Assembly (NCBI RefSeq): GCF_003334315.1
Contig: NZ_QOWR01000071.1
Strand: one strand, 5' to 3'
Source: Escherichia coli
Lineage (GTDB): Bacteria > Pseudomonadota > Gammaproteobacteria > Enterobacterales > Enterobacteriaceae
Length of the DNA stretch: 19,819 nt
Within the stretch, counting starts at the first letter, position 1. Every line of letters begins with the position of its first letter. The translations under genes and the position numbers were made by a program. Positions 150-19,819 of the stretch are shown piece after piece. Under the pieces are notes generated by a model. The model was not told where the DNA came from, did no database searches, and worked only from the letters and a program-made list of their open reading frames with translations.

Positions 150-204
150 TGGAGCACCTCAAAAACACCATCATACACTAAATCAGTAAGTTGGCATCAT
201 CACC
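1..204 (-). mobile_element. IS1 insertion sequence, partial (left inverted repeat and insA 5' region); element continues beyond window start
   Basis: Reverse complement of 181-204 reads ggtgatgatgccaacttactgatt, matching the IS1 terminal inverted repeat from memory (one A/C variant); the rest of 1-204 matches the IS1 insA 5' region as I recall it. IS end abuts the yjgL-like frame at 204/205. Confidence 0.85.
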
Positions 205-907
205 TCGATGTTGAAGACTTTTTTAAAATTGCCATATATTAATGATGTAAAAATTCTGGAGTGGTGTTTTAATCAAAGTATGCAATATTCTGATGATACT
301 ACAAAGATAAAGCATGCCCGCTCCGTGATCGATCATATTGATTTTAACTGCGATCAGTCTAAAATAGCTGAGACATTATTTTTCAACCTCAATAAAGAAC
401 CCTATAAAAACAGCCCTGAGTTACAGGAATTGATTTGGGAGAAGTTGGTTGTATATGTCAATGATTTTAACTTAAGCAATCAAGAAAAATCACGCTTAAT
501 ACTAAGGTTATTTGATGATGTTAAGTTGCTATTTAATGAAGTGTCTGTCAGCATTTTAGTAAATGATATTTTTTTTGAAGGATTTTTTCATGAAGCAACC
601 TGATTTTGCGAAGTGGTACTTCTATCAATTACTTAAGAAGTATGAGGGCGAACAGCTGTATCTTAATGAGTTAGGATATGTTTATGGTAATGAAGAAAAA
701 ACAAATGAAATTGTAAAAAAACATCCGGGTTATGTCATTAAGATTTTTGAAGAAAAGATGGGTAATGAATTAAAAATTAGAACAAGAATGATGAAAATCC
801 TCCGGAATGGCAAAATCAATATATATGAATATATTAATAATGAACAGTTGGGAAAATTAAATCCTCCGGAAGATTTACGTATAGTAATAGAAAAATTTGG
901 GTGGTAG
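205..907 (+). pseudogene. AT-rich ORF remnant truncated at its 5' end by IS1 and split into two frames (208-603, 563-907); position matches yjgL of K-12 by synteny only
   Basis: Reading frame is open from the IS1 boundary (stop at 187-189 lies inside IS1) into the 131-aa ORF. A second 114-aa ORF overlaps in another frame near a T8 homopolymer (about 568-575). Low GC, F/N/K/I-rich. Lies upstream of and divergent in strand from argI, as yjgL does in K-12. Confidence 0.5.
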
Positions 908-936
908 AATAGAACTATTACTACATAAAATAATGT

Positions 937-968
937 GATGCCGGGATAGTTTTGTATTTCCCGGCATC
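937..968. terminator. Bidirectional hairpin terminator between the yjgL-like remnant and argI
   Basis: Perfect 10-bp inverted repeat gatgccggga (937-946) / tcccggcatc (959-968) with a 12-nt loop; T-rich flank on the minus strand just 3' of the argI stop (985). Confidence 0.5.
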
Positions 969-984
969 TTTATAGCGATATCAA

Positions 985-1989
985 TTATTTACTGAGCGTC
1001 GCGACCATCACCGCTTTGATGGTATGCATACGGTTTTCCGCCTGATCAAAAACAATGCTGGCGGCAGATTCGAAGACCTCATCAGTCACTTCCATTCCGC
1101 CATGTAGGCCAAATTCTTCCGCCATTTTCTTACCAAGCGTCGTTTGGTCGTCATGAAACGCGGGCAGGCAGTGGAGGAATTTGACCTCCGGGTTACCAGT
1201 CAACTGCATCATCTTGCTGTTCACCTGATAATCACGCAGCAATGCAATCCGTTCCGCCCATTTCTCTTTTGCTTCACCCATCGACACCCATACATCGGTA
1301 TAGATAAAGTCAGCACCTTCAACTCCTTTGGCTACATCTTCCGTCAGCGTAATATCCCCGCCATTTTGCTGTGCCAGGGCGCGGCATTCCGTAACCAGCG
1401 CAGCTTCCGGCCAGCATGCCTTTGGCGCGACCAGACGCAAATCCAGACCGGTAAGCGCCGCAGCTTCAAGCATCGAGTTTCCCATGTTGTTACGTGCGTC
1501 ACCTGCATAGACCAGCGTCATTTCGTTGAATGTTTTACCGGGCAAATGCTCTTGCATGGTGAGAAGATCCGCCAGCAGCTGGGTGGGGTGGAACTCATTG
1601 GTCAGGCCGTTCCATACTGGCACGCCAGCGTATTCCGCCAGTGTTTCGACAATCTCCTGACCATAGCCGCGATACTGAATACCGTCATACATGCGACCAA
1701 GCACGCGGGCAGTGTCTTTAATCGACTCTTTATGACCAATCTGGCTGCCGCTTGGGCCGAGATAAGTAACGCGAGCACCCTGGTCATATGCGGCAACTTC
1801 GAAAGAGCATCGGGTACGAGTCGAGTCTTTTTCGAAGATGAGCGCGATGTTTTTACCAGTGAGTTTGGCTTCTTCTTTACCACTTTTCTTATCGGCTTTC
1901 AGCTTCGCGGCTAACTGCAGCAGGCTGTTGAGTTCAGCTGGCGTGAAATCGAGTAATTTCAGGAAATGCTTATGATAAAACCCAGACAT
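985..1989 (-). CDS. argI: Ornithine carbamoyltransferase chain I
   Basis: 334-aa ORF beginning [35 protein letters not shown] and containing STRTR and HCLP motifs; N-terminus matches ArgI rather than ArgF (MSDLYKKHFL) from memory. Synteny with rraB. Confidence 0.95.
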
Positions 1990-2014
1990 AGATCCCTCCT
2001 GTGGCTAACGCCTC

Positions 2015-2053
2015 AATGAATTAAAATTCAATTTATATGGATGGTTATTCATT
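2015..2053. promoter_or_regulatory. Tandem ARG boxes (ArgR operator) in the argI promoter region
   Basis: Core TGAATTAAAATTCA at 2017-2030 is a perfect match to the ARG-box palindrome; a second degenerate box TGGATGGTTATTCA at 2038-2051 is spaced as expected, 26-64 bp upstream of the argI start. Confidence 0.75.
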
Positions 2054-2150
2054 TGCAAGTCTAAAGCATAAATCTTTGTCACAAAGGTGGAGGCAATGTC
2101 AGTGGTGTGTGACAATAAGAGTATCGGCAGGACATTAAGAGGAATGAGCC

Positions 2151-2567
2151 ATGGCAAACCCGGAACAACTGGAAGAACAGCGTGAAGAAACACGTTTGAT
2201 TATTGAAGAATTACTGGAAGATGGCAGCGATCCGGACGCGCTGTACACCATCGAACACCATCTTTCCGCAGACGATCTGGAAACCCTGGAAAAAGCAGCA
2301 GTTGAAGCGTTTAAACTTGGTTATGAAGTGACCGATCCAGAAGAGCTGGAAGTTGAAGATGGTGATATCGTGATTTGCTGCGACATCCTCAGCGAGTGCG
2401 CGTTGAATGCCGATCTGATCGATGCCCAGGTTGAACAACTGATGACGCTGGCGGAGAAATTTGACGTTGAGTACGACGGTTGGGGCACTTACTTTGAAGA
2501 TCCTAACGGCGAAGACGGCGACGATGAAGATTTTGTCGATGAAGACGATGACGGGGTTCGCCACTAA
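2151..2567 (+). CDS. rraB: Regulator of RNase E activity B (acidic protein)
   Basis: 138-aa highly acidic [40 protein letters not shown] with a D/E-rich C-terminus; divergent from argI as in K-12. Confidence 0.9.
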
Positions 2568-2580
2568 TTAATTGATTAAA

Positions 2581-2614
2581 ATGCCCGATAGCACACACTA
2601 GCGGGCATTTTTTT
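2581..2614. terminator. Intrinsic terminator shared by convergent rraB and yjgM
   Basis: Stem atgcccg / cgggcat (2581-2587 / 2602-2608) followed by a T7 run at 2608-2614; the yjgM stop codon overlaps the T-tract. Confidence 0.7.
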
Positions 2615-3116
2615 AGAGTTCGCGTAGCATCCGCACTTCACAATCGACATGGCCCGTGCAGCCAAGCGCATAGTCGATATGCTCAAAGCCCAAATGCTCA
2701 TAAAGCGCAATGGCTTCCTTTAAAAAAGCGGTCGTTTCCAGATAGCAGCGTTTGAAGCCCATCTCTCGTGCCTGCTCCATCGCCATTAAGGCCAGTTTTT
2801 TCGCCAGCCCTTTACCGCGAATAGCCGGAAGAAAATACATCTTTTGCAGTTCGCAAATGTCCGATTCACTACCTGCTAATGGCGCAATCCCACCGCCGCC
2901 GACCACTTCACCATCGAACTCAACCACCCAATATGCATGGCCAGGCTGACTATACACTTGATACAACTCGTCAAGGTTCGGATCGGCGACGGTGTAGCCT
3001 TTATCAGCGGTAAGACCGTATTCGGCGGATACCTGACGAATGACGCGGGCGATAGCGGGATTATCCTGCTGCGTCAGGCGACGCATTACAGGTGATTGCG
3101 GCGCAATGTTATTCAT
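2613..3116 (-). CDS. yjgM: GNAT-family N-acetyltransferase
   Basis: 167-aa ORF with an acetyl-CoA-binding style motif ([25 protein letters not shown]); position between rraB and yjgN. Confidence 0.85.
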
Positions 3117-3308
3117 AGTTTAACCCAATAAAAATAAAGTAATTATACATTTGTTTAATACCACTCTCTTCTTACGTGCGCAAGCGACTTATAAAGTAAT
3201 AAAGTTTTTGCCAGCCTATTACTGATAAGAGTATTGTAACGTGGCAGAACATTTTACTGTCTGTATCTATAAATTATATCAATGGATTTTTTAATTCAGG
3301 GAATTTTT

Positions 3309-4505
3309 ATGGCTCAAGTTATTAATGAAATGGATGTTCCGTCCCATTCGTTTGTTTTTCATGGCACAGGTGAGAGATATTTTCTTATTTGTGTGGTGAA
3401 TGTGTTGTTAACGATTATAACGCTAGGTATCTATTTACCATGGGCATTAATGAAATGTAAGCGTTATCTCTATGCTAATATGGAAGTTAACGGACAACGA
3501 TTTTCTTATGGAATTACCGGTGGGAATGTTTTTGTTAGTTGTCTTGTTTTTGTTTTTTTCTATTTCGCAATCTTAATGACAGTGTCAGCAGATATGCCGC
3601 TTGTTGGCTGTGTTTTGACTTTGTCACTGTTGGTTTTGCTTATATTTATGGCAGCAAAAGGACTGCGTTATCAGGCCTTGATGACCAGTCTCAACGGCGT
3701 AAGATTTAGTTTTAATTGCTCTTTGAAAGGGTTCTGGTGGGTAACCTTTTTCTTGCCGATTTTAATGGCCATTGGGATGGGGACTGTTTTCTTTATCTCG
3801 ACAAAGATGCTACATGCCAATAGTTCAAGTAGTGTTATTATATCTGTGGTTCTGATGGCAATAGTTGGTATTGTTTCCATTGGTATTTTTAATGGTACTT
3901 TATATAGTCTGGTAATGAGTTTTCTCTGGAGCAATACCAGTTTCGGTATACATCGTTTCAAGGTGAAATTAGATACTACGTATTGTATAAAATATGCCAT
4001 TCTCGCATTTTTAGCTTTATTACCTTTTCTCGCTGTTGCTGGTTATATTATCTTCGATCAAATATTAAATGCGTATGATAGTTTTGTGTATGCAAATGAT
4101 GATATTGAGAATTTACAGCAATTTATGGAAATGCAACGTAAAATGATAATCGCGCAGTTAATCTATTATTTTGGGATTGCTGTTAGCACCAGTTATTTAA
4201 CGGTGTCGTTGCGAAATCATTTTATGAGCAACCTGTCACTGAATGATGGGCGTATTCGTTTTCGCTCAACTTTAACTTACCACGGTATGCTTTATCGCAT
4301 GTGTGCGTTGGTAGTGATATCCGGGATTACGGGCGGTCTGGCTTATCCACTGCTGAAAATATGGATGATTGACTGGCAGGCAAAAAATACGTATTTGCTG
4401 GGCGATTTGGATGACCTTCCTTTAATCAATAAAGAAGAACAACCAGATAAAGGCTTCTTAGCCAGTATTTCACGGGGAATTATGCCTTCTTTACCATTTC
4501 TGTAA
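3309..4505 (+). CDS. yjgN: Inner membrane protein, DUF898 family
   Basis: Multi-pass hydrophobic ORF. Start placed at ATG 3309 (MAQVINEMDVPSHSFVFHGTGERYF) rather than the track start 3282, giving 398 aa as recalled for YjgN. Confidence 0.85.
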   Translation: MAQVINEMDVPSHSFVFHGTGERYFLICVVNVLLTIITLGIYLPWALMKCKRYLYANMEVNGQRFSYGITGGNVFVSCLVFVFFYFAILMTVSADMPLVGCVLTLSLLVLLIFMAAKGLRYQALMTSLNGVRFSFNCSLKGFWWVTFFLPILMAIGMGTVFFISTKMLHANSSSSVIISVVLMAIVGIVSIGIFNGTLYSLVMSFLWSNTSFGIHRFKVKLDTTYCIKYAILAFLALLPFLAVAGYIIFDQILNAYDSFVYANDDIENLQQFMEMQRKMIIAQLIYYFGIAVSTSYLTVSLRNHFMSNLSLNDGRIRFRSTLTYHGMLYRMCALVVISGITGGLAYPLLKIWMIDWQAKNTYLLGDLDDLPLINKEEQPDKGFLASISRGIMPSLPFL

Positions 4506-4510
4506 GAGAT

Positions 4511-4545
4511 AAAAAAGGCCGGAGCATTCTCCGGCCTTCGTTTTC
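4511..4545. terminator. Bidirectional intrinsic terminator between yjgN and valS
   Basis: 10-bp stem aaggccggag / ctccggcctt (4515-4524 / 4529-4538) with a 4-nt loop; A6 on one side and T4 on the other give U-tracts on both strands. Confidence 0.8.
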
Positions 4546-4558
4546 ATCACGGTGTTGA

Positions 4559-7414
4559 TTACAGCGCGGCGATAACAGCCTGCTGTTCAATCAGCTTCGC
4601 TTTCGCTTCCGCATAGCCTTCCAGCTTCTCACGCTCTTTCGCGATGACCGCTTCCGGTGCGCGGGCGACAAAGCCTTCATTCGCCAGCTTGTTCTCGATA
4701 CGGCTGATTTCGCCTTCGATCTTCGCCACTTCTTTCGCCAGACGCGCCAGCTCATCTTCTTTGTTGATGAGGCCAGCCATCGGGATCAGCAGCTCTGCGC
4801 CGTCGATGATCTTCGTAACGGAAACCGGACCTTTGTCATCGGCAGGCAGCACGGTGATGCTTTCCAGACGCGCCAGGGTTTGCAGGAAGCCACGGTTTTC
4901 ATTTACGCGACGTTCTGCATCCGCGCTGCAACCACGCAGCAGCAGCTCCAGCGGTTTGCCCGGCGCGATGTTCATTTCTGCACGGATGTTACGTACCGCA
5001 ACGATCGCCTGTTTCAGCCATTCGGTGTCGGCCAGTGCGGCTTCATCAACCTGAGATGCATCGTACTGCGGGAACGGCTGCAGCATGATGGTGTCGGCAG
5101 TGATACCGCAAAGTACTTTCACACGCTGCCAGATGGTTTCGGTGATGAACGGAATGATCGGATGCGCGAGGCGCAGCAGACCTTCCAGTACAGTCACCAG
5201 CGTATGGCGAGTACCGCGCAGTTCGGCTTCGGTGCCACCGTTCATTACCGGCTTGGTCAGCTCCAGATACCAGTCACAGAACTGGTTCCAGGTGAACTCA
5301 TACAGAATGCCTGCAGCGATATCGAAGCGGAAGCTGTCCAGCGCTTCGCGGTACGCTTTGATGGTCTGGTTGAACTCTGCCAGAATCCAGCGGTCCGCCA
5401 GCGACAGTGTCATTTCGCCGCCGTTAAAGCCGCAATCCTGACCTTCTGTGTTCATCAGCACAAAGCGGCTGGCGTTCCACAGCTTGTTACAGAAGTTACG
5501 GTAACCTTCCAGGCGCTTCATATCCCAGTTGATGTCACGACCGGTAGACGCCAGCGCCGCCAGGGTGAAGCGCAGGGCATCGGTGCCGTGCGGCTCAATG
5601 CCGTTCGGGAACTGTTTCTCGGTGCGCTTACGGATTTTGTCCGCCAGCTGCGGCTGCATCATATTGCCGGTACGTTTTTCCAGCAGTTCTGGCAGCGAAA
5701 TACCGTCAACCATATCCAGCGGGTCGATAACGTTACCCTTGGATTTGGACATCTTCTGGCCTTCGTCGTCACGAATCAGACCGGTCATGTAAACAGTGTG
5801 GAACGGCACCTGCGGTTTGCCATTTTCATCTTTGATGAAGTGCATGGTCATCATGATCATGCGGGCAATCCAGAAGAAGATGATGTCGAAGCCGGATACC
5901 ATCACGCTGGTTGGGTGGAACTGACGCAGGGCGTCGGTGTTTTCCGGCCAGCCAAGGGTAGAGAAGGTCCACAGTGCAGAAGAGAACCAGGTGTCGAGAA
6001 CGTCTTCGTCCTGACGCAGGGCAACGTCGGCACCGAGGTTATTTTCCTTGCGCACTTCTTCTTCGTTGCGGCCAACATAAACGTTACCTGCTTCGTCGTA
6101 CCATGCAGGGATACGGTGACCCCACCACAGCTGACGAGAGATACACCAGTCCTGAATATCGCGCATCCAGGAGAAGTACATGTTTTCGTACTGCTTCGGT
6201 ACGAACTGAATGTCGCCGTTCTCAACCGCTTCAACCGCCGGTTTCGCCAGTACATCGGCACGCACGTACCACTGGTCGGTCAGCATTGGTTCGATAACTA
6301 CGCCGCCACGGTCGCCGTAAGGAACGGTCAGGTCGTGCGGTTTAATTTCTTCCAGCAGGCCGAGTGCGTCAACCGCAGCAACGACTGCTTTACGTGCAGC
6401 AAAACGCTCGAGTTTCTGGAACTCTGCCGGGATTTCGCTGGAATAAACGTCAGATTCGTTACCTTTGGTATCGAACACCTGGGCGCTTTCACGGATATCG
6501 CCGTCAAAGGTCAGGATGTTGATCATCGGCAGCGCGTGACGTTTACCCACTTCATAGTCGTTAAAGTCGTGCGCCGGAGTGATTTTCACGCAGCCGGTGC
6601 CTTTTTCCATGTCGGCGTGTTCGTCGCCAACGATCGGAATACGACGGTTAACCAGCGGTAGAATGACATATTTGCCAATCAGGTCTTTGTAACGCGGATC
6701 TTCCGGGTTAACGGCCACGCCGGTATCGCCCAACAGGGTTTCCGGACGGGTAGTCGCAACCACCAGATAATCTTTACCGTCTGCGGTTTTCGCGCCGTCA
6801 GCCAGCGGATAGCGGATGTGCCACATCGAACCTTTCGATTCGCGGTTTTCCACTTCCAGGTCAGAGATAGCGGTGCGCAGTTTCGGATCCCAGTTTACCA
6901 GGCGTTTGCCACGGTAAATCAGGTCTTCTTTATACAGACGAACGAAAACTTCTTTCACCGCATTGGACAGGCCTTCGTCCATCGTGAAGCGTTCACGCTC
7001 CCAGTCGACGGAGTTGCCGAGACGGCGCATCTGACGGGTAATGGTGCCGCCGGATTCCGCTTTCCATTCCCAAATTTTGTCGATGAAAGCTTCGCGGCCG
7101 TAGTCGTGACGGGTTTTACCTTCTTCTGCGGCAATCTTGCGCTCAACGACCATCTGGGTAGCGATCCCGGCGTGGTCAGTACCGACCTGCCACAGGGTGT
7201 TTTTGCCCTGCATGCGCTGATAGCGGATCATGGTATCCATGATGGTTTGCTGGAAGGCGTGACCCATATGCAAACTGCCGGTGACGTTCGGCGGCGGGAT
7301 CATGATGCAGAAACTTTCCTGGCTTTCATCGCCATTAGGCTTAAAGTAGCCCTGCTTTTCCCAGTGCTCGTAAAGCGGCTGTTCGATATCTTGTGGGTTG
7401 TATGTCTTTTCCAT
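4559..7414 (-). CDS. valS: Valine--tRNA ligase
   Basis: 951-aa ORF with the class I aaRS HIGH-type motif ([12 protein letters not shown]) and KMSKS; length and sequence match ValS. Confidence 0.97.
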
Positions 7415-7857
7415 TATTTCCAGGTTGCCGTATTCAGGTTGAAACCAGCCACGCGGTAGGCTTTATAGCGTTCGCGCGCCAGTTGTTTCAGAGAATCTTC
7501 ATAAGGAACGAAGTCTACCACTTCTGTGAAAGCGGTGGCAAAATCTGCAAAGCTTGTTCGCAGACTAATCAATATATCGCGCGGGCTGCTGCTGCGTTTT
7601 TGCGGCCAGGCGATCTCCACCGGCGCACCGCCGCGCGGTCCTTCTCCCGCTAAATTATGCGGAACAAAGCTTTCTGCCGGACGCGCCCACAGGGCTTCAT
7701 CCAGCCGGTAAGCCTGCTTTTCATCTTCACAGGCGATGAGCACGCGCTTACCGCTGCGCCAACGTTCTGCGGCAATTTCACACACCAGCTGCTCAACGGC
7801 GCTTAAGCCATCGACGGTGGTGTCATTGTCCAGAAGGTAGAACGTCGCGTTTTTCAT
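7414..7857 (-). CDS. holC: DNA polymerase III chi subunit
   Basis: 147-aa [49 protein letters not shown]; its stop overlaps the valS start (ATGA at 7414), consistent with the holC-valS operon. Confidence 0.93.
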
Positions 7858-7889
7858 AAATGGGGCTTCTTGTGGTGGATTTAAATACG

Positions 7890-9725
<1,836 letters not shown>

Positions 9726-9988
9726 CTACGCTCCTGAATCTTAAAGACAACGGCGGTGGCTACAGATAGAATTGCAAGCTTTCGTAACTCATGTCCGCTG
9801 TTGCGATGACTTCGTGTTAATCTTAACGTTATTACGGCATTGGCACGTCAGAACAAAATCTGAGAGGTGAATCCGTTGAGTATAATTATCTTAGCGACGA
9901 TTTCGACGACTCAAGAGAATAAATGACGTTTAAGCCATGAAACAAGCTAAAATCCTGCAAAAGACGAGTTTTTACGGGCGTATTTAAA

Positions 9989-11089
9989 GTGATAATCATA
10001 AGATATCTGGTGCGGGAGACGCTCAAAAGCCAGCTGGCGATACTCTTCATCTTGCTTTTGATCTTCTTCTGTCAAAAGTTAGTGAGGATCCTCGGCGCAG
10101 CGGTTGACGGCGATATTCCGGCGAATCTGGTGCTCTCCCTTCTCGGGTTGGGCGTGCCGGAAATGGCGCAGCTTATCCTGCCATTAAGCCTGTTCCTCGG
10201 GCTGCTGATGACGCTGGGCAAACTGTATACCGAAAGTGAAATTACGGTAATGCATGCCTGCGGCCTGAGCAAAGCGGTTCTGGTGAAAGCGGCAATGATC
10301 CTTGCGGTATTCACGGCAATCGTCGCGGCGGTTAACGTGATGTGGGCGGGACCGTGGTCATCGCGTCATCAGGATGAAGTGTTAGCAGAAGCGAAAGCGA
10401 ACCCTGGCATGGCGGCGCTGGCGCAAGGGCAATTCCAGCAAGCGACTAATGGCAGCTCGGTGCTGTTCATCGAAAGCGTTGACGGCAGCGATTTCAAAGA
10501 TGTGTTCCTCGCACAAATTCGACCAAAAGGTAATGCACGTCCTTCTGTGGTGGTGGCCGATTCCGGACATTTAACCCAGCTGCGCGACGGCTCCCAGGTC
10601 GTCACTCTCAACCAGGGAACGCGCTTCGAAGGCACTGCACTGTTACGTGATTTCCGCATTACGGATTTCCAGGATTATCAGGCGATCATTGGTCACCAGG
10701 CGGTGGCGCTCGACCCGAACGATACCGACCAGATGGACATGCGCACATTATGGAACACTGACACCGATCGTGCTCGCGCAGAACTGAACTGGCGTATCAC
10801 GTTGGTATTCACCGTGTTTATGATGGCACTTATGGTCGTACCGCTGAGCGTGGTTAACCCACGTCAGGGACGCGTACTGTCGATGCTGCCAGCCATGCTG
10901 CTGTATCTACTTTTCTTCCTGATCCAGACCTCCCTGAAATCGAACGGCGGTAAAGGTAAGCTGGACCCGACGCTGTGGATGTGGACCGTTAACCTGATTT
11001 ATCTGGCTTTGGCGATTGTTCTCAACCTTTGGGACACCGTGCCGGTCCGCCGCCTGCGCGCCAGTTTTTCGCGTAAAGGAGCGGTGTGA
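9989..11089 (+). CDS. lptF: LPS export ABC transporter permease LptF
   Basis: 366-aa membrane ORF starting at GTG 9989 (MIIIRYLVRETLKSQLAILFILLL), immediately followed by lptG. Confidence 0.93.
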   Translation: MIIIRYLVRETLKSQLAILFILLLIFFCQKLVRILGAAVDGDIPANLVLSLLGLGVPEMAQLILPLSLFLGLLMTLGKLYTESEITVMHACGLSKAVLVKAAMILAVFTAIVAAVNVMWAGPWSSRHQDEVLAEAKANPGMAALAQGQFQQATNGSSVLFIESVDGSDFKDVFLAQIRPKGNARPSVVVADSGHLTQLRDGSQVVTLNQGTRFEGTALLRDFRITDFQDYQAIIGHQAVALDPNDTDQMDMRTLWNTDTDRARAELNWRITLVFTVFMMALMVVPLSVVNPRQGRVLSMLPAMLLYLLFFLIQTSLKSNGGKGKLDPTLWMWTVNLIYLALAIVLNLWDTVPVRRLRASFSRKGAV

Positions 11090-12171
11090 TGCAACCTTTT
11101 GGCGTACTTGACCGCTATATCGGTAAAACTATTTTCACCACCATCATGATGACGCTGTTCATGCTGGTGTCGCTGTCGGGCATTATCAAGTTTGTCGATC
11201 AGTTGAAAAAAGCCGGGCAGGGGAGTTACGACGCGTTAGGCGCAGGAATGTATACCTTGCTGAGCGTGCCGAAAGATGTGCAGATCTTCTTCCCGATGGC
11301 GGCTCTGCTTGGGGCGTTGCTTGGTCTTGGGATGCTGGCGCAGCGCAGCGAACTGGTGGTGATGCAGGCTTCTGGTTTTACCCGTATGCAGGTGGCGCTG
11401 TCGGTGATGAAAACCGCCATTCCGCTGGTCTTGCTGACGATGGCGATTGGCGAATGGGTTGCGCCGCAGGGCGAACAGATGGCGCGTAACTACCGTGCGC
11501 AGGCGATGTACGGCGGCTCGTTGCTCTCTACCCAGCAAGGCTTATGGGCGAAAGATGGCAACAACTTCGTCTACATTGAGCGGGTTAAAGGTGACGAAGA
11601 GTTAGGTGGCATCAGCATTTATGCCTTTAACGAGAATCGTCGTCTGCAATCCGTACGCTATGCCGCTACTGCGAAGTTTGACCCGGAACATAAAGTCTGG
11701 CGTCTGTCGCAGGTTGATGAATCTGATCTGACCAATCCGAAACAGATTACCGGTTCGCAGACGGTGAGCGGCACCTGGAAAACCAACCTCACGCCAGACA
11801 AACTGGGCGTGGTGGCGCTGGACCCGGATGCACTCTCCATTAGCGGTTTGCACAACTATGTGAAGTATCTGAAGTCGAGCGGTCAGGATGCCGGACGTTA
11901 TCAGCTCAACATGTGGAGCAAAATCTTCCAGCCGCTATCCGTGGCGGTGATGATGCTGATGGCGCTGTCGTTCATCTTTGGCCCACTGCGTAGCGTACCG
12001 ATGGGCGTGCGTGTGGTCACCGGTATCAGCTTCGGTTTTGTCTTCTACGTACTGGACCAGATCTTCGGCCCGCTGACGTTGGTTTATGGCATCCCGCCGA
12101 TCATCGGCGCACTGTTGCCAAGCGCCAGCTTCTTCTTAATCAGCCTGTGGCTGTTAATGAGAAAATCGTAA
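11089..12171 (+). CDS. lptG: LPS export ABC transporter permease LptG
   Basis: ATG at 11089 overlaps the lptF stop (GTGATG); product begins MQPFGVLDRYIGKTIFTTIMMTLFMLVSLSG, 360 aa. Confidence 0.93.
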   Translation: MQPFGVLDRYIGKTIFTTIMMTLFMLVSLSGIIKFVDQLKKAGQGSYDALGAGMYTLLSVPKDVQIFFPMAALLGALLGLGMLAQRSELVVMQASGFTRMQVALSVMKTAIPLVLLTMAIGEWVAPQGEQMARNYRAQAMYGGSLLSTQQGLWAKDGNNFVYIERVKGDEELGGISIYAFNENRRLQSVRYAATAKFDPEHKVWRLSQVDESDLTNPKQITGSQTVSGTWKTNLTPDKLGVVALDPDALSISGLHNYVKYLKSSGQDAGRYQLNMWSKIFQPLSVAVMMLMALSFIFGPLRSVPMGVRVVTGISFGFVFYVLDQIFGPLTLVYGIPPIIGALLPSASFFLISLWLLMRKS

Positions 12172-12289
12172 CCAAGCAAGGGAGCGAAAGCTCCCTTTCA
12201 CATTGTTGATAAAGTCAAATACGAGTTCGATCGGTCCCCTCGCCCCTTTGGGGAGAGGGTTAGGGTGAGGGGCACAGACCGCACCTGAC

Positions 12290-13792
12290 TTACCTTCTTC
12301 TCCCCCCCAGCAAACTCCCCAACATCCCGCGTACAATCTGATTCGTCACCTGGCGAGCGGCGCTTTTGGCCATTGTTTGCACCACACCATCTTTCTTCCC
12401 GCCGCGTGGTCCGGTAGTGCCAAACAAAATATCCTTCAATCCACCAAGAATACCGTCATCCACCGCCACCTCTTTCCCTTTCGCGGCAGGATTATTTTGC
12501 TGCTCGGTACTGGCCTGAAAGCCTTTTTGCAACATCTCATAGGCGGATTCTCGGTCCACCTCATCCTCATATTTGCCATACACCGGGGAGTGATTAATCA
12601 GGCCATTACGCTCATCTTCCGTCACCGGCCCCATTCGCGAACAAGGCGCGATCACCATCGCCCGCTCCACCACTGAAGGACTTCCTTTCACATCAAGAAA
12701 CGAGATTAACGCCTCGCCGGTGCCCAGTTCCTGAATCGCCTTTTCGGTATCAAACGCCGGATTGGCCCGCATGGTTTGCGCCGCAGCTTTTACCGCTTTC
12801 TGATCTTTGGGCGTAAAAGCACGCAAAGCGTGTTGAACGCGATTACCGAGCTGCCCGAGCACGTTATCCGGAATATCAGACGGGTTTTGCGAAACGAACC
12901 AGACGCCCACGCCTTTTGAGCGAATAAGCCTTATCACCTGCTCAATCTTATCCAGCAGTACCTGCGGTGCGTCATTAAACAGCAGATGTGCTTCGTCGAA
13001 GAAAAACACCAGTTTCGGCTTCTCCAGATCGCCTGCTTCCGGCAATTGTTCATACAACTCCGAGAGCATCCACAACAGGCTGGCGGCATATAGTTTCGGC
13101 ATCTGATAAAGCTTTTCGGCGCTGAGGATATTGATAACGCCTTTACCGTTGGCATCGGTGCGCATCCAGTCTTTGATATCCAGCATCGGCTCGCCAAAGA
13201 AATGCTCCGCACCTTGTTGCTCCAGCGACAGTAATCCGCGCTGGATGGCACCAACCGATGCGCTACTGATATTTCCGTACTGATTCTGGAAAGATTTGGC
13301 GTTATCGCCGATGTACTGGGTAATCGCCCGCAAATCTTTAAAGTCGAGCAGTAACAGCCCCTGATCGTCAGCAATGCGGAAGATGATATTCAGCACGCCA
13401 GACTGCACATCGTTGAGATTCAACAGCCGCGCCAGCAACAGCGGCCCCAGGTCTGAAACCGTCGCCCGCACCGGATGGCCTTTCTCGCCAAAGATATCCC
13501 ACACCACCACCGGATTGGCATGCGGTTGCCAGTCATTGACGCCGATATTTTTAAGCCTTGTGAGCAGTTTTTCCGACGCCGTTCCTGCCTGCGCGATACC
13601 GGTCAGATCGCCTTTCACATCAGCCATAAACACCGGCACGCCGATTTCCGACAATGACTCTGCCAGTTTTTGCAGCGTAACGGTTTTACCCGTCCCCGTT
13701 GCGCCAGTAATCAGCCCGTGACGGTTAGCCATTCCCGGCAGTAAAAACAGTTCTGTGTCCGGCGTGCGGGCAATTAACAGGGGTTCGCTCAT
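12290..13792 (-). CDS. yjgR: DUF853-family P-loop NTPase
   Basis: Walker A GATGTGKT near the N-terminus. Start placed at ATG 13792 ([16 protein letters not shown]), giving 500 aa, rather than the longer track ORF from 13840. Confidence 0.85.
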
Positions 13793-13891
13793 GAGATTTC
13801 CTCCAGTTTCCTGCCTGGAGTATAGGCAACGGCTGTGCACTCTTCACCGCTAAATTCAGCAGATTGCGAGACGCCTTCCAAAGAGATTTAA

Positions 13892-13915
13892 GTGCCGGGC
13901 GACAGGCACCCGGCA
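13892..13915 (-). terminator. Putative hairpin terminator downstream of ahr
   Basis: GC-rich inverted repeat tgccggg / cccggca (13893-13899 / 13909-13915), 7 bp 3' of the ahr stop; the minus-strand flank after it is moderately T-rich. Confidence 0.45.
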
Positions 13916-13921
13916 AAGGGA

Positions 13922-14941
13922 TCAGAAGTCGGCTTTCAGGACCACGCGGTAGCGCGCTTTACCATCGCGTACATGCTGGATGGCGTCGTTAATTTTCGAC
14001 ATCGGGAACAGTTCGGTGGTCGGCGCAACCTTGCTGCGGGCGGCAAAACGCATCAGCTTACGCAGCTCATAAGGCGTGCCGGTAGCAGAACCAGAGACGC
14101 TGCGATCGCCCGCAATTAACGTAAAGGCCGGAACAGACAGCGGCGTGAGAACCGCACCGACCGTATGGAAATTACCGCCATAGGTCAGCGCCTCAAAATA
14201 AGGCTGCCAGTCGAGGCTGACGTTGACGGTGTTGATAATGAGATCAAACTGCCCCGCCAGTGCTTTCAGTGCCTGCGGATCGCGGCTATTCACCACTTTA
14301 TCGGCACCCATCGCCAGTACTTCCTGCTCTTTCGCCGGATTAGAACTAAAGGCCGTCACCTCGCATCCCATTGCGTGCAGAAGTTTTATAGCGATATGCC
14401 CCAGCCCGCCAATACCAATTACCCCAACGCGGCTGGTAGCAGTGATATGGTGCATCAACAGTGGTTTAAAGACCGTGATACCACCACACAACAGCGGCCC
14501 GGCGGACTCGATATCAATATTTTCTGGCAGTGGAATCACCCATTGCCAGTCCGCACGCAACTTCTCGGCAAAACCACCACGATTCATAATTGTTGGCACC
14601 GCACCTTGCTCGCAGTTGATCTGATTACCGCTAATACAGGCGTCGCAGTGACCACAGCTACGCGCCGTCCAGCCAATCCCGACACGCTGACCGACCTGCA
14701 AACCTTTATCCTGCGCGGCGCTCCCGAGTGCCACCACGCGCCCAATCACCTCATGCCCGGCAACCAGCGGATATTGTGAAAATCCCCATTCGTTATCGAT
14801 CATCGACAGATCGGAATGGCAGATCCCGCAGTAATCCACCTGCACTTCAACATCTTGTGGCTTCAGCTCACCGGGATCGTACTCATAAACTTCCAGTTCG
14901 CCGCCCGCTTCTTTTGCGGCATAGCTTTTTATCATCGACAT
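13922..14941 (-). CDS. ahr: NADPH-dependent aldehyde reductase, zinc-type alcohol dehydrogenase family
   Basis: Start at ATG 14941 ([26 protein letters not shown]), 339 aa; contains the Zn-ADH motif [12 protein letters not shown] and the Rossmann motif [10 protein letters not shown]. Lies directly upstream of leuX as yjgB/ahr does in K-12. Confidence 0.9.
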
Positions 14942-15136
14942 TTTTGGGTCCTTCTCTGGTGTTGTTTGGGAAGTGTAGAGCATGGCAGGGCGGGGTGCCT
15001 GGAGTGTGACAAAGGTTACACATCGCGGTATGCAATGCTGAAAATTTCAGCACTTAGCGAGGTGCGAGCAAGCTGGCGCTTGCATGGTGGCGTGCGACAG
15101 GTATAATCCACAACGTTTTCCGCATACCTCTTCAGT

Positions 15137-15221
15137 GCCGAAGTGGCGAAATCGGTAGACGCAGTTGATTCAAAATCAACCGTAGAAATACGTGCCGGTT
15201 CGAGTCCGGCCTTCGGCACCA
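15137..15221 (+). tRNA. leuX: tRNA-Leu (anticodon CAA)
   Basis: GCCGAAGTGGCGAAATCGGTAGACGCAGTTGATTCAAAATCAACCGTAGAAATACGTGCCGGTTCGAGTCCGGCCTTCGGCACCA: cloverleaf with long variable arm, anticodon loop TTCAAAA giving CAA, and 3' CCA. Confidence 0.95.
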
Positions 15222-15234
15222 AAAGTATGTAAAT

Positions 15235-15258
15235 AGACCTCAACTGAGGTCTTTTTTT
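15235..15258 (+). terminator. Intrinsic terminator of leuX
   Basis: Stem agacctc / gaggtct (15235-15241 / 15246-15252) with a 4-nt loop, followed by T7. Confidence 0.85.
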
Positions 15259-15407
15259 ATGCCTGAAATCCAGTATTTACCTACCTTTCCCGCTATATTA
15301 ACTCTCTCAAGGTCAACCGACATCAACGTACATCTACCAACACATGTTGGTACAGATGATGGTATTTCCGGTTCGATAATGCTTGTACCAACAGGGAGGG
15401 GATAAGC

Positions 15408-16673
15408 ATGGCGTTAACAGATATCAAGGTCAGAACAGCCAAGCCAATGGATAAGCAGTACAAACTGACCGATGGCAGCGGTATGCACCTGCTTGTCCAT
15501 CCTAATGGTTCTAAGTACTGGCGTTTGCAGTACCGTTATGATGGCAAGCAAAAGATGTTGGCACTTGGGATTTACCCTGAAATAACACTGGCGGATGCCA
15601 GAGCACGTCGTGACGACGCGCGTAAGCTGCTAGCGAATGGCGTCGATCCGGGAGACAAAAAGAAAAATGATAAGGTTGAACAGAGTAAAGCACGAACCTT
15701 TAAAGAGGTCGCGATCGAGTGGCATGGCACCAATAAAAAGTGGTCTGAAGATCACGCCCATCGTGTGCTAAAAAGCTTGGAAGATAATCTCTTCGCGGCA
15801 CTTGGTGAGCGTAATATCGCTGAGCTAAAAACTCGTGATTTATTAGTACCCATTAAAGCCGTAGAGACATCTGGACGTCTTGAAGTGGCTTCCCGCCTTC
15901 AACAGCGCACCACGGCCATCATGCGTTATGCAGTGCAAAGCGGGTTAATTGATTACAATCCGGCGCAAGAGATGGCGGGGGCGGTTGCTTCCAGTAATCG
16001 ACAGCATCGTCCGGCGCTGGAGTTAAGGCGTATCCCTGAGTTGCTTGAGAAAATAGACAGCTATACCGGCAGGCCGTTAACCCGCTGGGCGACAGAACTC
16101 ACTCTGCTTATCTTTATTCGGTCCAGTGAGCTGCGTTTTGCTCGCTGGTCAGAAATCGATTTTGAAACGTCAATGTGGACTATCCCGCCCGAGCGAGAGC
16201 CTATTCCTGATGTGAAACATTCTCAGCGAGGATCAAAGATGCATACACCGCATCTGGTGCCGCTTTCAAAGCAGGCGCTGGCGATCCTGAAGCAGATAAA
16301 ACAGTTCTGTGGCGAACATGAGCTGATTTTTATTGGCGATCACGATCCGCGTAAGCCCATGAGCGAGAACACGGTAAACAGTGCGCTACGGGTGATGGGT
16401 TATGACACTAAGGTTGAAGTTTGCGGCCACGGCTTCCGTACAATGGCCTGTAGTTCGTTAATTGAGTCAGGACTATGGTCGAAGGATGCGGTGGAAAGGC
16501 AGATGAGCCATATGGAACGCAATTCGGTGAGGGCGGCGTATATCCATAAAGCGGAACATCTGGATGAGCGCAAGCTGATGTTGCGGTGGTGGGCGGATTT
16601 TCTGGATGCGAACCGGGAGAAAGGGATTACGCCGTTTGACTACGCGAAGATCAATCGGGGTAATGGCGAGTGA
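15408..16673 (+). CDS. P4-type tyrosine integrase (site-specific recombinase) at the leuX tRNA
   Basis: 421-aa ORF with strong SD (agggagggg) before the ATG; catalytic-domain signatures HGFR and RAAYIH (His-X-X-Arg ... Tyr); begins about 190 bp after the tRNA 3' end, the typical layout for P4-like integrative islands. Confidence 0.9.
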   Translation: MALTDIKVRTAKPMDKQYKLTDGSGMHLLVHPNGSKYWRLQYRYDGKQKMLALGIYPEITLADARARRDDARKLLANGVDPGDKKKNDKVEQSKARTFKEVAIEWHGTNKKWSEDHAHRVLKSLEDNLFAALGERNIAELKTRDLLVPIKAVETSGRLEVASRLQQRTTAIMRYAVQSGLIDYNPAQEMAGAVASSNRQHRPALELRRIPELLEKIDSYTGRPLTRWATELTLLIFIRSSELRFARWSEIDFETSMWTIPPEREPIPDVKHSQRGSKMHTPHLVPLSKQALAILKQIKQFCGEHELIFIGDHDPRKPMSENTVNSALRVMGYDTKVEVCGHGFRTMACSSLIESGLWSKDAVERQMSHMERNSVRAAYIHKAEHLDERKLMLRWWADFLDANREKGITPFDYAKINRGNGE

Positions 16674-16714
16674 GTTGAATGCCGTTATTCCTCGGCTGAT
16701 GTTTAAATTTAAAA

Positions 16715-16757
16715 GACCAACCAGCCCGCTTAGGACTGGTTGGTCGCTGTATTTTTT
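16715..16757 (+). terminator. Intrinsic terminator after the integrase gene
   Basis: Perfect 10-bp stem gaccaaccag / ctggttggtc (16715-16724 / 16736-16745) followed by a T-run at 16751-16757. Confidence 0.8.
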
Positions 16758-16877
16758 CAGAATTCCATCTGCCAGGTACAGAGCCGTCAGGCAAAATGGA
16801 TGTCTGCAATAATGCCTTGAATGTACATATAGTTGCGAGCATCATCGCAAATATGTGCTCATGGATTCTCCAACGCA

Positions 16878-17756
16878 ATGACCTCTGACAAAACCCTAAA
16901 ACAAGCGATATCAAATATCACCATCTGGCGCAAAGGCGAACAACGTGCGCCACATAAGCCATTATTGCTGCTGTACGTTCTCTCACACTATCGGCAGGGT
17001 CATGGTCGCATGTTTAACTATGGTTCTGAAATCTACGAGCCCCTGTTGGATCTCCTGGAACGTTATGGACCGCAGCGCCGTGACCAGCGCCCGGACATGC
17101 CGTTCTGGCGTCTGAAGGGCGATGGCTTCTGGGAACTACATAACGCGGAACTGTGCTCAACCAGTGGTAGCCGCCAGCCGCCCCGACGTGAACTCATTGA
17201 ATATAATGTCGCTGGTGGATTTGATGCCGATAATTTTGCGTTGGTGGCAAAAAATCACAGGTTAATTGATACGCTGGCTCAGCAGCTCCTGGAGGCGCAT
17301 TTCCCGGCCAGTATTCAGGAAGAGATCGCTGACGAGATGGGTTTTGATATTCGCACCTCTCTCCGTCAACGCGATCCGAAGTTTCGCCAGATGGTGCTAC
17401 GTGCTTACAATTATCAGTGCGCTATCTGCGGCTTTAACATGCGCCACGACAATGCGCCGATTGCTCTGGAAGCCGCTCATATCAGATGGAAGCAGCACCA
17501 TGGCCCTTGCGAAGTACCTAATGGCCTGGCATTGTGTGCAATCCACCATAAAGCGTTTGATCGCGGTTCGATTGGCCTGGATGAAAATATGCGTGTGGTG
17601 GTTTCCGGTGCGGTAAATGGTGGTGGAGTGGTACAGCGACTGTTCTGGGATTTTGCGGGAAAGGCGATTGCGTTGCCACCGGTTAAAGAAAATTATCCGG
17701 GCGAGCAGTTTGTTGAATGGCACAGAAAAGAGGTGTTCAGAGGAGAGGGAATCTGA
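16878..17756 (+). CDS. Two-domain protein: N-terminal uncharacterised (possible DNA-modification reader) domain fused to a C-terminal HNH nuclease; candidate type IV-like restriction or defence nuclease
   Basis: HNH motif readable directly in the C-terminus: YQCAICGF ... LEAAHIRW ... NGLALCAIHHKAFD. The N-terminal roughly 170 aa has no HNH features but distinctive motifs (PHKPLLLLYVL, MPFWRLKGDGFWEL). Start chosen at the first ATG (16878); the track ORF begins at a TTG at 16833. First cargo gene after the integrase. Confidence 0.6.
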   Translation: MTSDKTLKQAISNITIWRKGEQRAPHKPLLLLYVLSHYRQGHGRMFNYGSEIYEPLLDLLERYGPQRRDQRPDMPFWRLKGDGFWELHNAELCSTSGSRQPPRRELIEYNVAGGFDADNFALVAKNHRLIDTLAQQLLEAHFPASIQEEIADEMGFDIRTSLRQRDPKFRQMVLRAYNYQCAICGFNMRHDNAPIALEAAHIRWKQHHGPCEVPNGLALCAIHHKAFDRGSIGLDENMRVVVSGAVNGGGVVQRLFWDFAGKAIALPPVKENYPGEQFVEWHRKEVFRGEGI

Positions 17757-17825
17757 AATAGATTGATTTTTTTCTTTAGATTATTAAGTTAGTTATTGAT
17801 AACGGCTTTATTATGTGGAGGGTAT

Positions 17826-18146
17826 ATGGTTAGGCGTAATGTGAAATGGTTGTCTTTCTTTATTTTTATTTCTATTCTGTCTTTATTTCGCGGGTGGTCG
17901 TTTATTAAACAGTTTCATCTGTCGGCATTTACTGTACTTGCTGTATTTATTTATGCGTTGTATAGCTATATAAGAATTTCAACTTTTGTAAATAAGATGG
18001 AGTTAAATAATAAATTTATTGTTTTTCTTAGGTTGAAGAAATTTGTTTTGTTTTTTAAGCAAGGGACTAAGCTCACTATTCTGGAAAGAAATATTGTCTT
18101 TTTTTCAGTTTATATACCTTGTCTGCTTATCATGTGCTTATATTAG
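17826..18146 (+). CDS. Hypothetical small hydrophobic protein (about 106 aa, 2 predicted TM segments); may be a composition artefact
   Basis: ATG at 17826 preceded by GGAGG (17817-17821); hydrophobic stretches LSFFIFISILSLF and AFTVLAVFIYALYSYI. The region is very AT-rich, which favours F/I/L codons, so coding status is uncertain. Confidence 0.3.
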   Translation: MVRRNVKWLSFFIFISILSLFRGWSFIKQFHLSAFTVLAVFIYALYSYIRISTFVNKMELNNKFIVFLRLKKFVLFFKQGTKLTILERNIVFFSVYIPCLLIMCLY

Positions 18147-18447
18147 GTAAAATGCATGTCATTAATAAATGGTTAAATGTGGGTTTGTATAACTAATTCA
18201 TAGGTGTCATTCCAGTTTTATTAGTTAAATTTGTCGTTCTGCTGCTTCAATGTGCCGAAAATAATTTTTTGTTCTTAAATAAGTATTGGCTGATAAATTG
18301 TCTCTCCTTTAATAAAATTTGAAGTTGTTCACGGTTTATAGGGTTCTTCAATTATTAATGTTTTTTCTTTGTTAGCATCTTTCCTCAATGCTATGTATCT
18401 TTATAAAGATACGACCTAATCTTATTTGTCATTTTTAAAATCCTGTA

Positions 18448-18944
18448 TTATATTGTGAAGTATAATAAGCTAAGGAACGAGCCGAAAATAAAAACATGTC
18501 TAAATATTGCTAATCCAACCAGTTCATCAAGGCGACAGCCTTTCCATGATGCATTCCTCCAGCCTAGCTGAAACAATGTTGACCATGATAGAATAAATAT
18601 TCCGGTGGCGCTAACGGCGTCTTTCCATTCTAATGGATAGATAATCCGAAATTTCCCTGAGTAAAATCCAATCGCAATTACTATAAAAAGCACACCCAAC
18701 ATTATTAGCACTGACGCAAGAATGGACTTTCTTAAGTCATCACAATACTCTTCGAGGGAGTGTTTGTGATCATCTGGATTTAGACTGTATTTCCCCGCCT
18801 CAAGTTTTCTCTTATATTCATCCTTCTCAAGTTCAAAAGCCATCTTATTGATAGCACCAAGCGTAATAAATTTTTCCTTGTTGAAGAAAAAATAAAACAT
18901 TGCTTTATAAATATTTTCTTTTTTAGGTAGTTGTGCTGTGTTCA
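18448..18944 (-). CDS. Hypothetical membrane protein (about 165 aa; soluble charged N-terminal part plus 3 predicted TM helices)
   Basis: ORF on the minus strand with ATG at 18944 (MNTAQLPKKENIYKAMFYFFF); the track's longer version starts at a TTG at 18981. Predicted TM segments ILASVLIMLGVLFIVIAIGFY, GIFILSWSTLFQLGW and LVGLAIFRHVFIFGSFLSLLYF. No recognisable family from sequence alone. Confidence 0.4.
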
Positions 18945-18970
18945 TATTCTCATAAAAAATAAGTAACGAT

Positions 18971-18993
18971 GTTGACAGCAAGAAGCTGTCAAC
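18971..18993 (-). other. Perfect 9-bp stem hairpin between the hsdR-like remnant and the membrane-protein gene (possible terminator or leader structure)
   Basis: gttgacagc (18971-18979) / gctgtcaac (18985-18993) with a 5-nt loop, 8 nt 3' of the hsdR-like stop; the T-run lies 9 nt further on, so this is not a textbook intrinsic terminator. Confidence 0.4.
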
Positions 18994-19000
18994 ATGAAAT

Positions 19001-19366
19001 TCACATCGTCCAATGATTCGAAATAACTTCCGCTTGTTTCAAAATTAACTCCACCGCACCCGGCGTTTTATCTGGCGGATACTTATACCGACGCAGAGTC
19101 TGGCGAACCAAGATACGCAGCCTTGCACGAACGCTCTCGCGCACCTGCCAGTCAACGGTAGTTGATTGCCTCAACTTCAAGGTGACTTCTATCGCCAGTT
19201 TCTTAAGCACCTCATCCCCTAACTCTCGGACGGCACTTTCGTTTTCTGCCAGTGCGTCGTAGAAAGCGATTTCGTCAGGATTCAGGCCAAGCGCATCATC
19301 ACGCTCCATTGCAGACTGAAAATCCTTCGCCATCTGGATCAGCTCTTCAATCACCTGCGCCGTCTC
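19001..19366 (-). pseudogene. 3' remnant (about 122 codons) of a type I restriction enzyme R-subunit-like gene, truncated by IS1 insertion
   Basis: ORF ...LNPDEIAFYDALAENESAVRELGDEVLKKLAIEVTLKLRQSTTVDWQVRESVRARLRILVRQTLRRYKYPPDK... resembles the conserved HsdR C-terminal domain (DUF3387-like) as I recall it. The frame stays open upstream right to the IS1 boundary at 19366/19367, as expected for an insertion into a longer gene. Confidence 0.5.
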
Positions 19367-19819
19367 GGTAATGGTCCCAACTTATTGATAGTGTTTTATG
19401 TTCAGATAATGCCCGATTACTTTGTCATGCAGCTCCACCGATTTTGAGAACGACAGCGACTTCCGTCCCAGCCGTGCCAGGTGCTGCCTCAGATTCAGGT
19501 TATGCCGCTCAATTCGCTGCGTATATCGCTTGCTGATTACGTGCAGCTTTCCCTTCAGGCGGGATTCATACAGCGGCCAGCCATCCGTCATCCATATCAC
19601 CACGTCAAAGGGTGACAGCAGGCTCATAAGACGCCCCAGCGTCGCCATCGTGCGTTCACCGAATACGTGCGCAACAACCGTCTTCCGGAGCCTGTCATAC
19701 GCGTAAAACAGCCAGCGCTGGCGCGATTTAGCCCCGACATAGCCCCACTGTTCGTCCATTTCCGCGCAGACGATGACGTCACTGCCCGGCTGTATGCGCG
19801 AGGTTACCGACTGCGGCCT
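19367..19819 (-). mobile_element. IS1 insertion sequence, partial (right inverted repeat and insB); same orientation as the copy at 1-204; continues beyond window end
   Basis: 19367 onward reads ggtaatggtcccaacttattgatagtgttttatgttcagataatg, the reverse complement of the IS1 right end from memory (variant at 2-3 positions); the remainder to the window edge matches insB. Confidence 0.85.
19382..19819 (-). CDS. insB: IS1 InsB (transposase C-terminal part; partial CDS truncated by window end)
   Basis: Translation ...[125 protein letters not shown] matches IS1 InsB; the frame continues open to the window edge. Confidence 0.9.

Follow-up and report, generated by a model that had tools for sequence, protein, structure and literature searches.

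Predicted arm-type integrase sites between leuX and a P4-family integrase gene of an Escherichia coli genomic island

Short repeats lying immediately in front of an integrase gene raise the question of what they are for: sites for the integrase itself, an operator for some other protein, part of a leader hairpin, or nothing at all. The repeats considered here are found in the window (the whole stretch of DNA that was analysed, 19,819 nt in length), which represents a segment of E. coli chromosome carrying valS, holC, pepA, lptFG, yjgR and ahr, followed by leuX. Window positions 794–19366 are 99.9% identical to NZ_CP019259.1 (locus L001). The repeat site sits between the leuX gene for tRNA-Leu(CAA) (15137–15221, plus strand) and a P4-family integrase gene (15408–16673, plus strand).

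The tRNA gene was identified by ARAGORN and by an Rfam tRNA match, and is annotated as tRNA-Leu in the 99.9% identical record. Its 3′ end contains the att core GAGTCCGGCCTTCGGCACCA (15202–15221, plus strand), whose 20 bp match the annotated attP core of phage P4 exactly. Downstream, an island-borne terminator, detected by a terminator scan as a hairpin plus T-run (15235–15259, hairpin at 15235–15252, plus strand), replaces the native leuX terminator. Across island types the leuX terminators occupy the same position with hairpins of different sequence, and downstream of each come the same T-run and a conserved block, TGAAATCC. The integrase (Int) is a tyrosine recombinase of 421 aa, identified from the list of open reading frames, its identity to P4 Int (58.5% over 97% of its length) and its Pfam domains, which are PF13356 (Arm-DNA-bind_3, residues 3–87, E = 2.8e-27), the central PF22022 and the catalytic PF00589. 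A ribosome-binding site read from the sequence, GGGAGGGG (15394–15401, plus strand), precedes the int ATG at 15408.

The near-identical record annotates the next gene after int (16833–17756, plus strand) as a restriction endonuclease that binds phosphorothioated DNA, the CDS there corresponding to window positions 16878–17756, and in L001 it is followed by a type I restriction fragment; the island thus carries defence cargo. Both ends of the window (1–204 and 19367–19819) consist of IS1, 98.7–99.5% identical to the IS1 copies of L001. The right-hand IS1 breaks the island about 2.7 kb after int, a place at which L001 has no IS1.

The exact 8-mer TACCAACA is present in three copies in the window, all inside one 59-bp stretch, compared with an expected count of 0.40 in shuffled sequences, of which 1 in 200 reached three copies. 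When the 186-nt intergenic region was shuffled with its dinucleotides preserved, any 8-mer reached three copies in 57 of 20,000 trials. The original prediction described three 9-mer repeats in front of int, and all three are real, although the first (CTACCAACA) lies at 15334–15342 rather than at 15335–15343; the second (TGTTGGTAC) is at 15345–15353 and the third (GTACCAACA) at 15385–15393. As had also been proposed, copies one and two form a palindrome, with arms of 8+8 nt and a spacer of 2 nt. Copies two and three make up an inverted repeat that is perfect over 10 nt (TGTTGGTACA / TGTACCAACA). The set of three was incomplete, however, in that a fourth, degenerate direct copy, TGATGGTATT at 15357–15366, had been overlooked. 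It lies exactly 12 bp past TGTTGGTACA in the same orientation, so the unit is one of four sites, with the shared consensus TG(T/A)TGGTA(C/T). Once the degenerate copy is included, a P4-like layout becomes recognisable.

The attP arm repeats of P4 and its integrase promoter, Pint, were reportedly described by Pierson and Kahn in 1987. In the P4 record X51522 five stretches flanking the 20-bp core are labelled "attP arm sequence repeat": a tandem pair of 12-mers about 54 nt before the core, a second tandem pair (TTGGGGGCATAA and TTGGGGGCATCT) starting 112 nt after it, and an inverted copy that abuts the start of int. A sixth annotated repeat is found inside the P4 int coding region. The sites of the window were named by this scheme. 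P′1 (TGTTGGTACA, 15345–15354, plus strand) is a predicted arm-type site at a position corresponding to P4 P′1, and the predicted site P′2 (TGATGGTATT, plus strand) is the degenerate direct repeat that follows it; the 12-bp period of P′1 and P′2 is common to P4 and all other motif types. The predicted inverted site P′3 (15384–15393, minus strand; TGTACCAACA on the plus strand) is located directly before the ribosome-binding site and matches the inverted P4 repeat that abuts the start of int. P′0 (15334–15342, minus strand; CTACCAACA on the plus and TGTTGGTAG on the minus strand) is an extra inverted copy, palindromic with P′1 and confined to TGNTGGTA lineages. Between P′2 and P′3 there is a TTCGAT box (15372–15377, plus strand, within CCGGTTCGATAAT at 15368–15380) that is invariant across arm-motif types, including P4. 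From left to right the order is P′0 (inverted), 2 nt, P′1, 2 nt, P′2, 5 nt, TTCGAT, 6 nt, P′3 (inverted), the ribosome-binding site and int. P′1 is placed 123 nt past the core in the window and in loci L017 and L015, and 112 nt past it in P4.

All sequences downstream of leuX core copies in E. coli genomes, viral contigs and metagenome contigs were then compared. Thirty-five distinct downstream sequences contained TTCGAT, most of them recognisable P′ arms with a shared geometry: P′1, 2 nt, P′2, 5–6 nt, TTCGAT, 5–6 nt, inverted P′3 and the int start. The P4-type arrangement was seen in more than 10 distinct P′ arms belonging to four motif types. The motif is TGTTGGTAY or TGATGGTAT in the window lineage (which includes the K-12-like intB region), TGYGGGTAY in the STEC711 / L017 lineage, GTGAGTATA (the GAGTATA type) in L015, L018, L075, L146 and L147, and TTGGGGGCAT in P4 and L016. 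A comparison with the integrase-proximal regions of related P4-type islands had been suggested, and it supports the proposal: the arrangement is kept, and the motif is swapped in concert between lineages. At least four leuX lineages, with the motifs TGTTGGTAY, TGYGGGTAY, GTGAGTATA and GGGGGCAT, differ at all of their sites together and retain both the geometry and TTCGAT. Concerted replacement of this kind is expected of repeated sites that are read by one co-evolving protein.

Within the window lineage the sites are more conserved than their surroundings. Among 12 distinct sequences, variation affected 2 of 36 motif columns and 25 of the 99 remaining intergenic columns (Fisher p = 0.014). P′0 (15334–15342) was invariant in the 12 members, and the palindrome spacer position 15343 carried three different bases among them. 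The more distant TGATGGTAT lineage (L046, L148) has a counterpart of P′0 that reads ATATACCAAC-cga-TGATGGTATA. In the comparison of P′ arms, P′0 was absent from the TGYGGGTA, GAGTATA and P4 types.

The N-terminal 88 residues of Int also fall into four sequence types, and these match the four arm-motif types; the type of arm motif goes with residues 1–60. One case is L075, whose Int is 96% identical to that of the window after residue 190 and 60% identical in residues 1–60, and whose arms are of the GAGTATA type. In this chimeric protein the arm motif tracks the N-terminus and not the catalytic domain. The L075 Int (2985–4217) can be described as a natural chimera, with a window-type catalytic half joined to an N-terminal domain and arms of the GAGTATA type. 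In L146 and L147 the first 50 or so nt after the core are shared with the window type and are followed by GAGTATA-type arms. The three chimeras point to recombination breakpoints both inside the P′ arm and inside int. Because the P′ arm adjoins the N-terminal coding region, linkage could contribute to the association of motif and Int, and the co-variation may partly reflect this rather than co-adaptation.

If the repeats are arm-type sites, then by analogy with P4 the other arm is predicted to carry tandem TGTTGGTAY about 55 nt before the right-end copy of the core. A metagenome scan requiring one TGGTAY 40–70 nt before GAGTCCGGCCTTCG returned 120 loci, many of them leuX-type attR junctions. 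Together with the loci collected earlier, these gave 63 distinct P arms with two tandem repeats of 12-bp period at −78/−66 from the core, most of the repeats being GTGTTGGTATCTGTGTTGGTATA or CTGATGGTATCAATGATGGTATC. Two loci, L098 and L083, have core copies on both sides as well as this type of integrase, and both carry two tandem TGTTGGTAT about 55 nt before the far core copy. L098 has the leuX core at 29, a P′ arm of the window type, an Int that is 91% identical, and a core copy at 5232 preceded by GTGTTGGTATCTGTGTTGGTATAGG; its right arm carries GTGTTGGTATCTGTGTTGGTATA. L083 has a core at 818, the same P′ arm, an Int that is 86% identical, and a core copy at 14518 preceded by TGTGTTGGTATCGATGTTGGTATA. 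A corresponding case for another motif is the L015/L017 tandem array on one viral contig, where a GAGTATA integrase has GAGTATA on its P′ arm and again 56 nt before the next core copy.

Of 5,426 complete E. coli genomes, 1,615 have the right end seen in L098. Since the left end of L098 is K-12-like and its right end is this common attR, the locus looks like a deletion derivative, that is, an internally deleted island, so that its two ends are likely, rather than certain, to be cognate. Recurrence of the motif on the attR side had been put forward as a check of the arm-site idea. It holds for L098 and L083 but not for the nearest complete genome, L001, the right junction of which is of the GAGTATA type. 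As that right end carries a different arm motif, a search of L001 alone would have led to the arm-site idea being wrongly refuted.

Scans of viral contigs gave one unrelated match only for a P arm of the window type, and only a chance match in a high-GC phage for one of the TGYGGGTA type, so that no P arm of the TGYGGGTA type was recovered. Several other candidates were set aside. The "tRNA-only" matches sampled as empty leuX sites carry other integrase islands instead. As links between attL and attR, JJ1886 was rejected for its island of more than 70 kb, duplicated and rich in IS elements, and CFSAN061763 for a leuX more than 9 kb from attR. L064, taken as a possible bounded element, has two cores, but its left core has no adjoining integrase.

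Core copies at right-end junctions almost always have one G missing (GAGTCCGGCCTTCG-CACCA), the copy inside leuX alone being intact. Several contigs have two to four tandem copies of CCTTCGCA in their right-end cores (L001, 34307–34346; L024, L025, L028, L046, L121, L123 and L129). Slippage and the position of the crossover are possibilities for both the missing G and the CCTTCGCA expansion. Tandem arrays at leuX (L011, L012 and L013, at about 9700–9815; L016, 11890–11992) contain a P4-like satellite between leuX and an island of the window type. The satellite has P-arm repeats GGGGGCACAAAAGGGGGCATA, and the window-type P′ arm then follows a secondary core copy and not the tRNA gene. Plasmid pCP53-92k (L010, 92 kb) carries, at 1621–5044, a 44-bp fragment of the leuX 3′ end flanked by genes for a P4-like tyrosine recombinase (minus strand) and for a 636-aa site-specific integrase. 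The same 636-aa integrase also occupies leuX in strain WCHEC020032 (L009).

A strict promoter scan of 14900–15600 found no sigma-70 site. The best candidate of a looser scan, TACAGA-18 nt-GATAAT at 15351–15380, is weak (8 of 12 matches), and its GATAAT (15375–15380) is the best −10 candidate. This candidate promoter overlaps P′1 and P′2, and its expected start site falls in P′3. The L017 type has TCTACA-18 nt-TACAAT on the P′1/P′2 junction, as in P4, for which X05947 annotates the Pint −35 TTGAAA and −10 CATAAT with the −10 on the junction of the tandem repeats (P′1/P′2). IHF sites were sought by eye, with imperfect matches only. Since the sites cover the sole promoter-like sequences before int, bound Int would be expected to repress its own gene, and from this overlap the sites probably also act to repress the int promoter.

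There are precedents for such control. P4 Int is reported to regulate itself by binding DNA directly close to where int starts (Piazzolla et al. 2006, described in PMC2951348), and the Vis protein is stated to lower P4 int expression as well, with the suggestion that it acts on int mRNA. IntS of KplE1 represses its own promoter through overlapping P′ sites, and integrases linked to Leu-tRNA genes are predicted to be mainly autoregulated (PMC2951348). For PAI I-536, IntI is likewise a repressor of its own promoter, and the remaining PAI integrases have promoters with hardly any activity (PMC7286903).

Taken together, the repeats most likely represent the P′ arm of the attL of an island inserted in leuX, and would be arm-type sites for the Arm domain of the adjacent P4-family Int. 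This was one of the options originally proposed, and it is supported by the Arm domain present in Int, by positions and geometry that agree with the P4 annotation, by the way the motif tracks the N-terminus, and by the occurrence of both arms in L098 and L083. The island has its left end in leuX, and arm-type sites are an expected, ordinary feature of such islands. A heterobivalent Int would then act through its C-terminal domains on the core in the tRNA 3′ end, while its N-terminal domains would hold the P′ arm sites and the two tandem P-arm copies, giving a recombination complex. Int seated on the P′ arm sites would also repress int, as P4 Int and further tRNA-linked integrases are reported to do. 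The anatomy, the positional agreement with the annotated P4 repeats, the recurrence of the motif on both arms of bounded relatives and its co-variation with the Int N-terminus are seen in the sequences themselves. Physical binding of Int is inferred, as is, from P4 and related systems, autorepression, and this particular island may or may not still use the sites for excision.

Other readings of the repeats have to be weighed against these observations. An operator for a protein other than Int, such as an AlpA/Vis-like directionality factor or a helix-turn-helix regulator, has several features in its favour: directionality factors typically have direct repeats as their sites, spaced by roughly one turn of the helix (PMC7498355), and P′1 and P′2 are 12 bp apart; the P′0/P′1 palindrome resembles the operator of a dimer; small helix-turn-helix genes exist in such islands; and Vis down-regulates P4 int (PMC2951348). 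The sites are nevertheless at positions annotated as Int arm repeats in P4, the motif is present in both orientations and on both arms, as expected of arm sites, and it tracks the N-terminal domain of Int even in a natural chimera. P4 Vis, moreover, is suggested in PMC2951348 to act on int mRNA and not on the repeats. No directionality-factor gene was found in the window, and the original option of an excisionase or directionality-factor operator received no specific support. Such an operator is conceivable at P′0/P′1; a foreign operator in place of Int sites is improbable. Still less probable is an RNA or DNA hairpin formed in the leader of int to regulate its translation or termination, with pairing of 15345–15354 to 15384–15393 or of 15335–15342 to 15345–15352. 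It would account for a perfect 10-nt inverted repeat beside the ribosome-binding site, and one partly compensatory change keeps P′1 and P′3 complementary in other lineages. The fold of 15330–15420 is unremarkable (z = −1.74, with 15 of 200 shuffles folding as well), however, and the minimum-energy structure lacks the P′1/P′3 pairing; in an Rfam search tRNA was the sole family matched at E ≤ 1. P′1 would also lie upstream of the transcript under the best promoter candidate, and a hairpin leaves both the co-varying direct P′2 and the two tandem, distant P-arm copies unexplained. A functionless chance cluster can be practically dismissed: some 8-mer occurs twice in about 45% of shuffled intergenic regions, but a triple 8-mer is as rare as the 57 in 20,000 shuffles given above, and the arrangement turns up again, built of other motifs, in independent lineages as well as on the far arm.

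One further reading accepts arm-type sites and concerns their present activity, not their identity: that these are true ancestral arm sites in a mosaic or decayed element, no longer serving excision and at most an autoregulatory operator. The right junction of L001 (34220–34346, outside the window) consists of TTGAGTATACATGTGAGTATATA, which supplies the GAGTATA tandem repeats, then about 55 nt and a degenerate core damaged by a fourfold CCTTCGCA expansion, and continues into the remnant P′ arm of yet another type. A search of the far end of L001 for an intact second leuX core and for the window-type motif found neither, and that motif occurs nowhere else in the 41.6 kb of L001. Because an Int and P′ arm of the TGTTGGTA type are paired with a P arm of the GAGTATA type, the L001 island is a mosaic, probably not excisable by its own integrase. 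The sequence of the window island is cut by IS1 at 19367, before any right end is reached, and because the right end is mismatched in L001, the nearest complete genome, the window island too may no longer excise. Many int genes of the lineage are truncated or frameshifted in other strains. Against decay, the int ORF of the window is intact (421 aa) with all three domains, and throughout the lineage the four sites stay constant amid variable neighbouring sequence, a pattern that speaks for ongoing selection. Loss of excision with retention of the sites is therefore a serious possibility, though on balance a doubtful one.

Two details, P′0 and the TTCGAT box, fall outside the textbook picture of arm-type sites. 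P′0 stands head-to-head with P′1 in the TG(T/A)TGGTA lineages, and the pair makes a palindrome resembling an operator, restricted to the P′ arm. TTCGAT resembles the tRNA T-loop sequence GGTTCGAG beside the core, and CCGGTTCGA of the TTCGAT region repeats tRNA T-arm sequence (15195–15203). Possible roles for the box are those of a −10 element, a site for an accessory factor or a core-like site for Int. Many elements have a TTCGAT-like sequence (GGTTCGAT or GATTCGAG) on the P arm too, ahead of the repeats and some 100–105 nt before the core (5125–5132 in L098). It is conceivable, if unlikely, that P′0 is a lineage-specific device for tighter autorepression by Int, or is also used by a second, dimeric regulator, and that TTCGAT is a site for an accessory factor not described so far, or a core-type-like site for Int in all P4-family elements that target leuX.

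The practical value of the assignment is modest: it provides an arm-site consensus and layout for one widespread lineage of leuX island integrases, and the same P′ arm is carried by intB of E. coli K-12. Arm sites help to delimit the ends of islands, to judge whether left and right arms match and hence whether excision is possible, and to choose integrase/att pairs with orthogonal arm specificity. At least four motif types sharing one core, together with a natural N-terminal swap, make a ready system for studying how arm specificity evolves. The known workings of such integrases are unchanged by the finding, and its general interest is low.

A literature search on the arm sites of leuX islands or of P4-like island integrases returned nothing specific, and comparison was made with better-studied systems. 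With phage lambda (P1, P2 and P′1–P′3), the predicted arrangement shares a heterobivalent Int, short arm repeats flanking the core and assembly of a higher-order complex (Ross and Landy 1982, cited in PMC2951348). The lambda motif is unrelated, with other spacing and an N-terminal domain of another family, and no promoter inside attL drives lambda int. The PAIs of uropathogenic E. coli 536 also have P4-like integrases of tRNA-linked islands, and the near silence of PintII to PintVI fits the weak candidate promoter of the window; that work centred on PAI I-536 and IHF, without defined arm-type sites (PMC7286903). KplE1 (argW), with its IntS/TorI system, resembles the window in having the tRNA gene and int in one orientation and, as predicted for the window from its candidate promoter, an int promoter (PintS) inside attL whose −10 region is overlapped by P′ arm-type sites (PMC2951348). 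It differs in its integrase lineage, in a motif of TAAA-containing sites, in having mapped directionality-factor sites, and in that negative autoregulation by the integrase is experimental there, the window locus being known from sequence alone (PMC2951348).

The closest counterpart is P4 itself. The motif differs (TTGGGGGCAT in P4 versus TG(T/A)TGGTAY in the window lineage), as does the distance from core to P′1 (112 versus 123 nt). P4 lacks P′0, whereas the window has this inverted site in palindromic arrangement with P′1, and the P4 promoter, TTGAAA-18 nt-CATAAT, has in the window only a much weaker match. P4 is also a satellite phage, whereas the element here is a CP4-like genomic island. 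Common to both are the core GAGTCCGGCCTTCGGCACCA in leuX and the type of integrase (58% identical), the P4 int product being annotated in NC_001609 as arm-type DNA-binding-domain-containing. Both have two direct sites at a 12-bp period, TTCGAT, and one inverted site abutting the start of int, and in both the sites overlap the int promoter region, which in the window is a candidate promoter. On the other arm, P4 has a tandem pair of sites some 54 nt ahead of the core, and the same is seen for the present type of island in its relatives L098 and L083.
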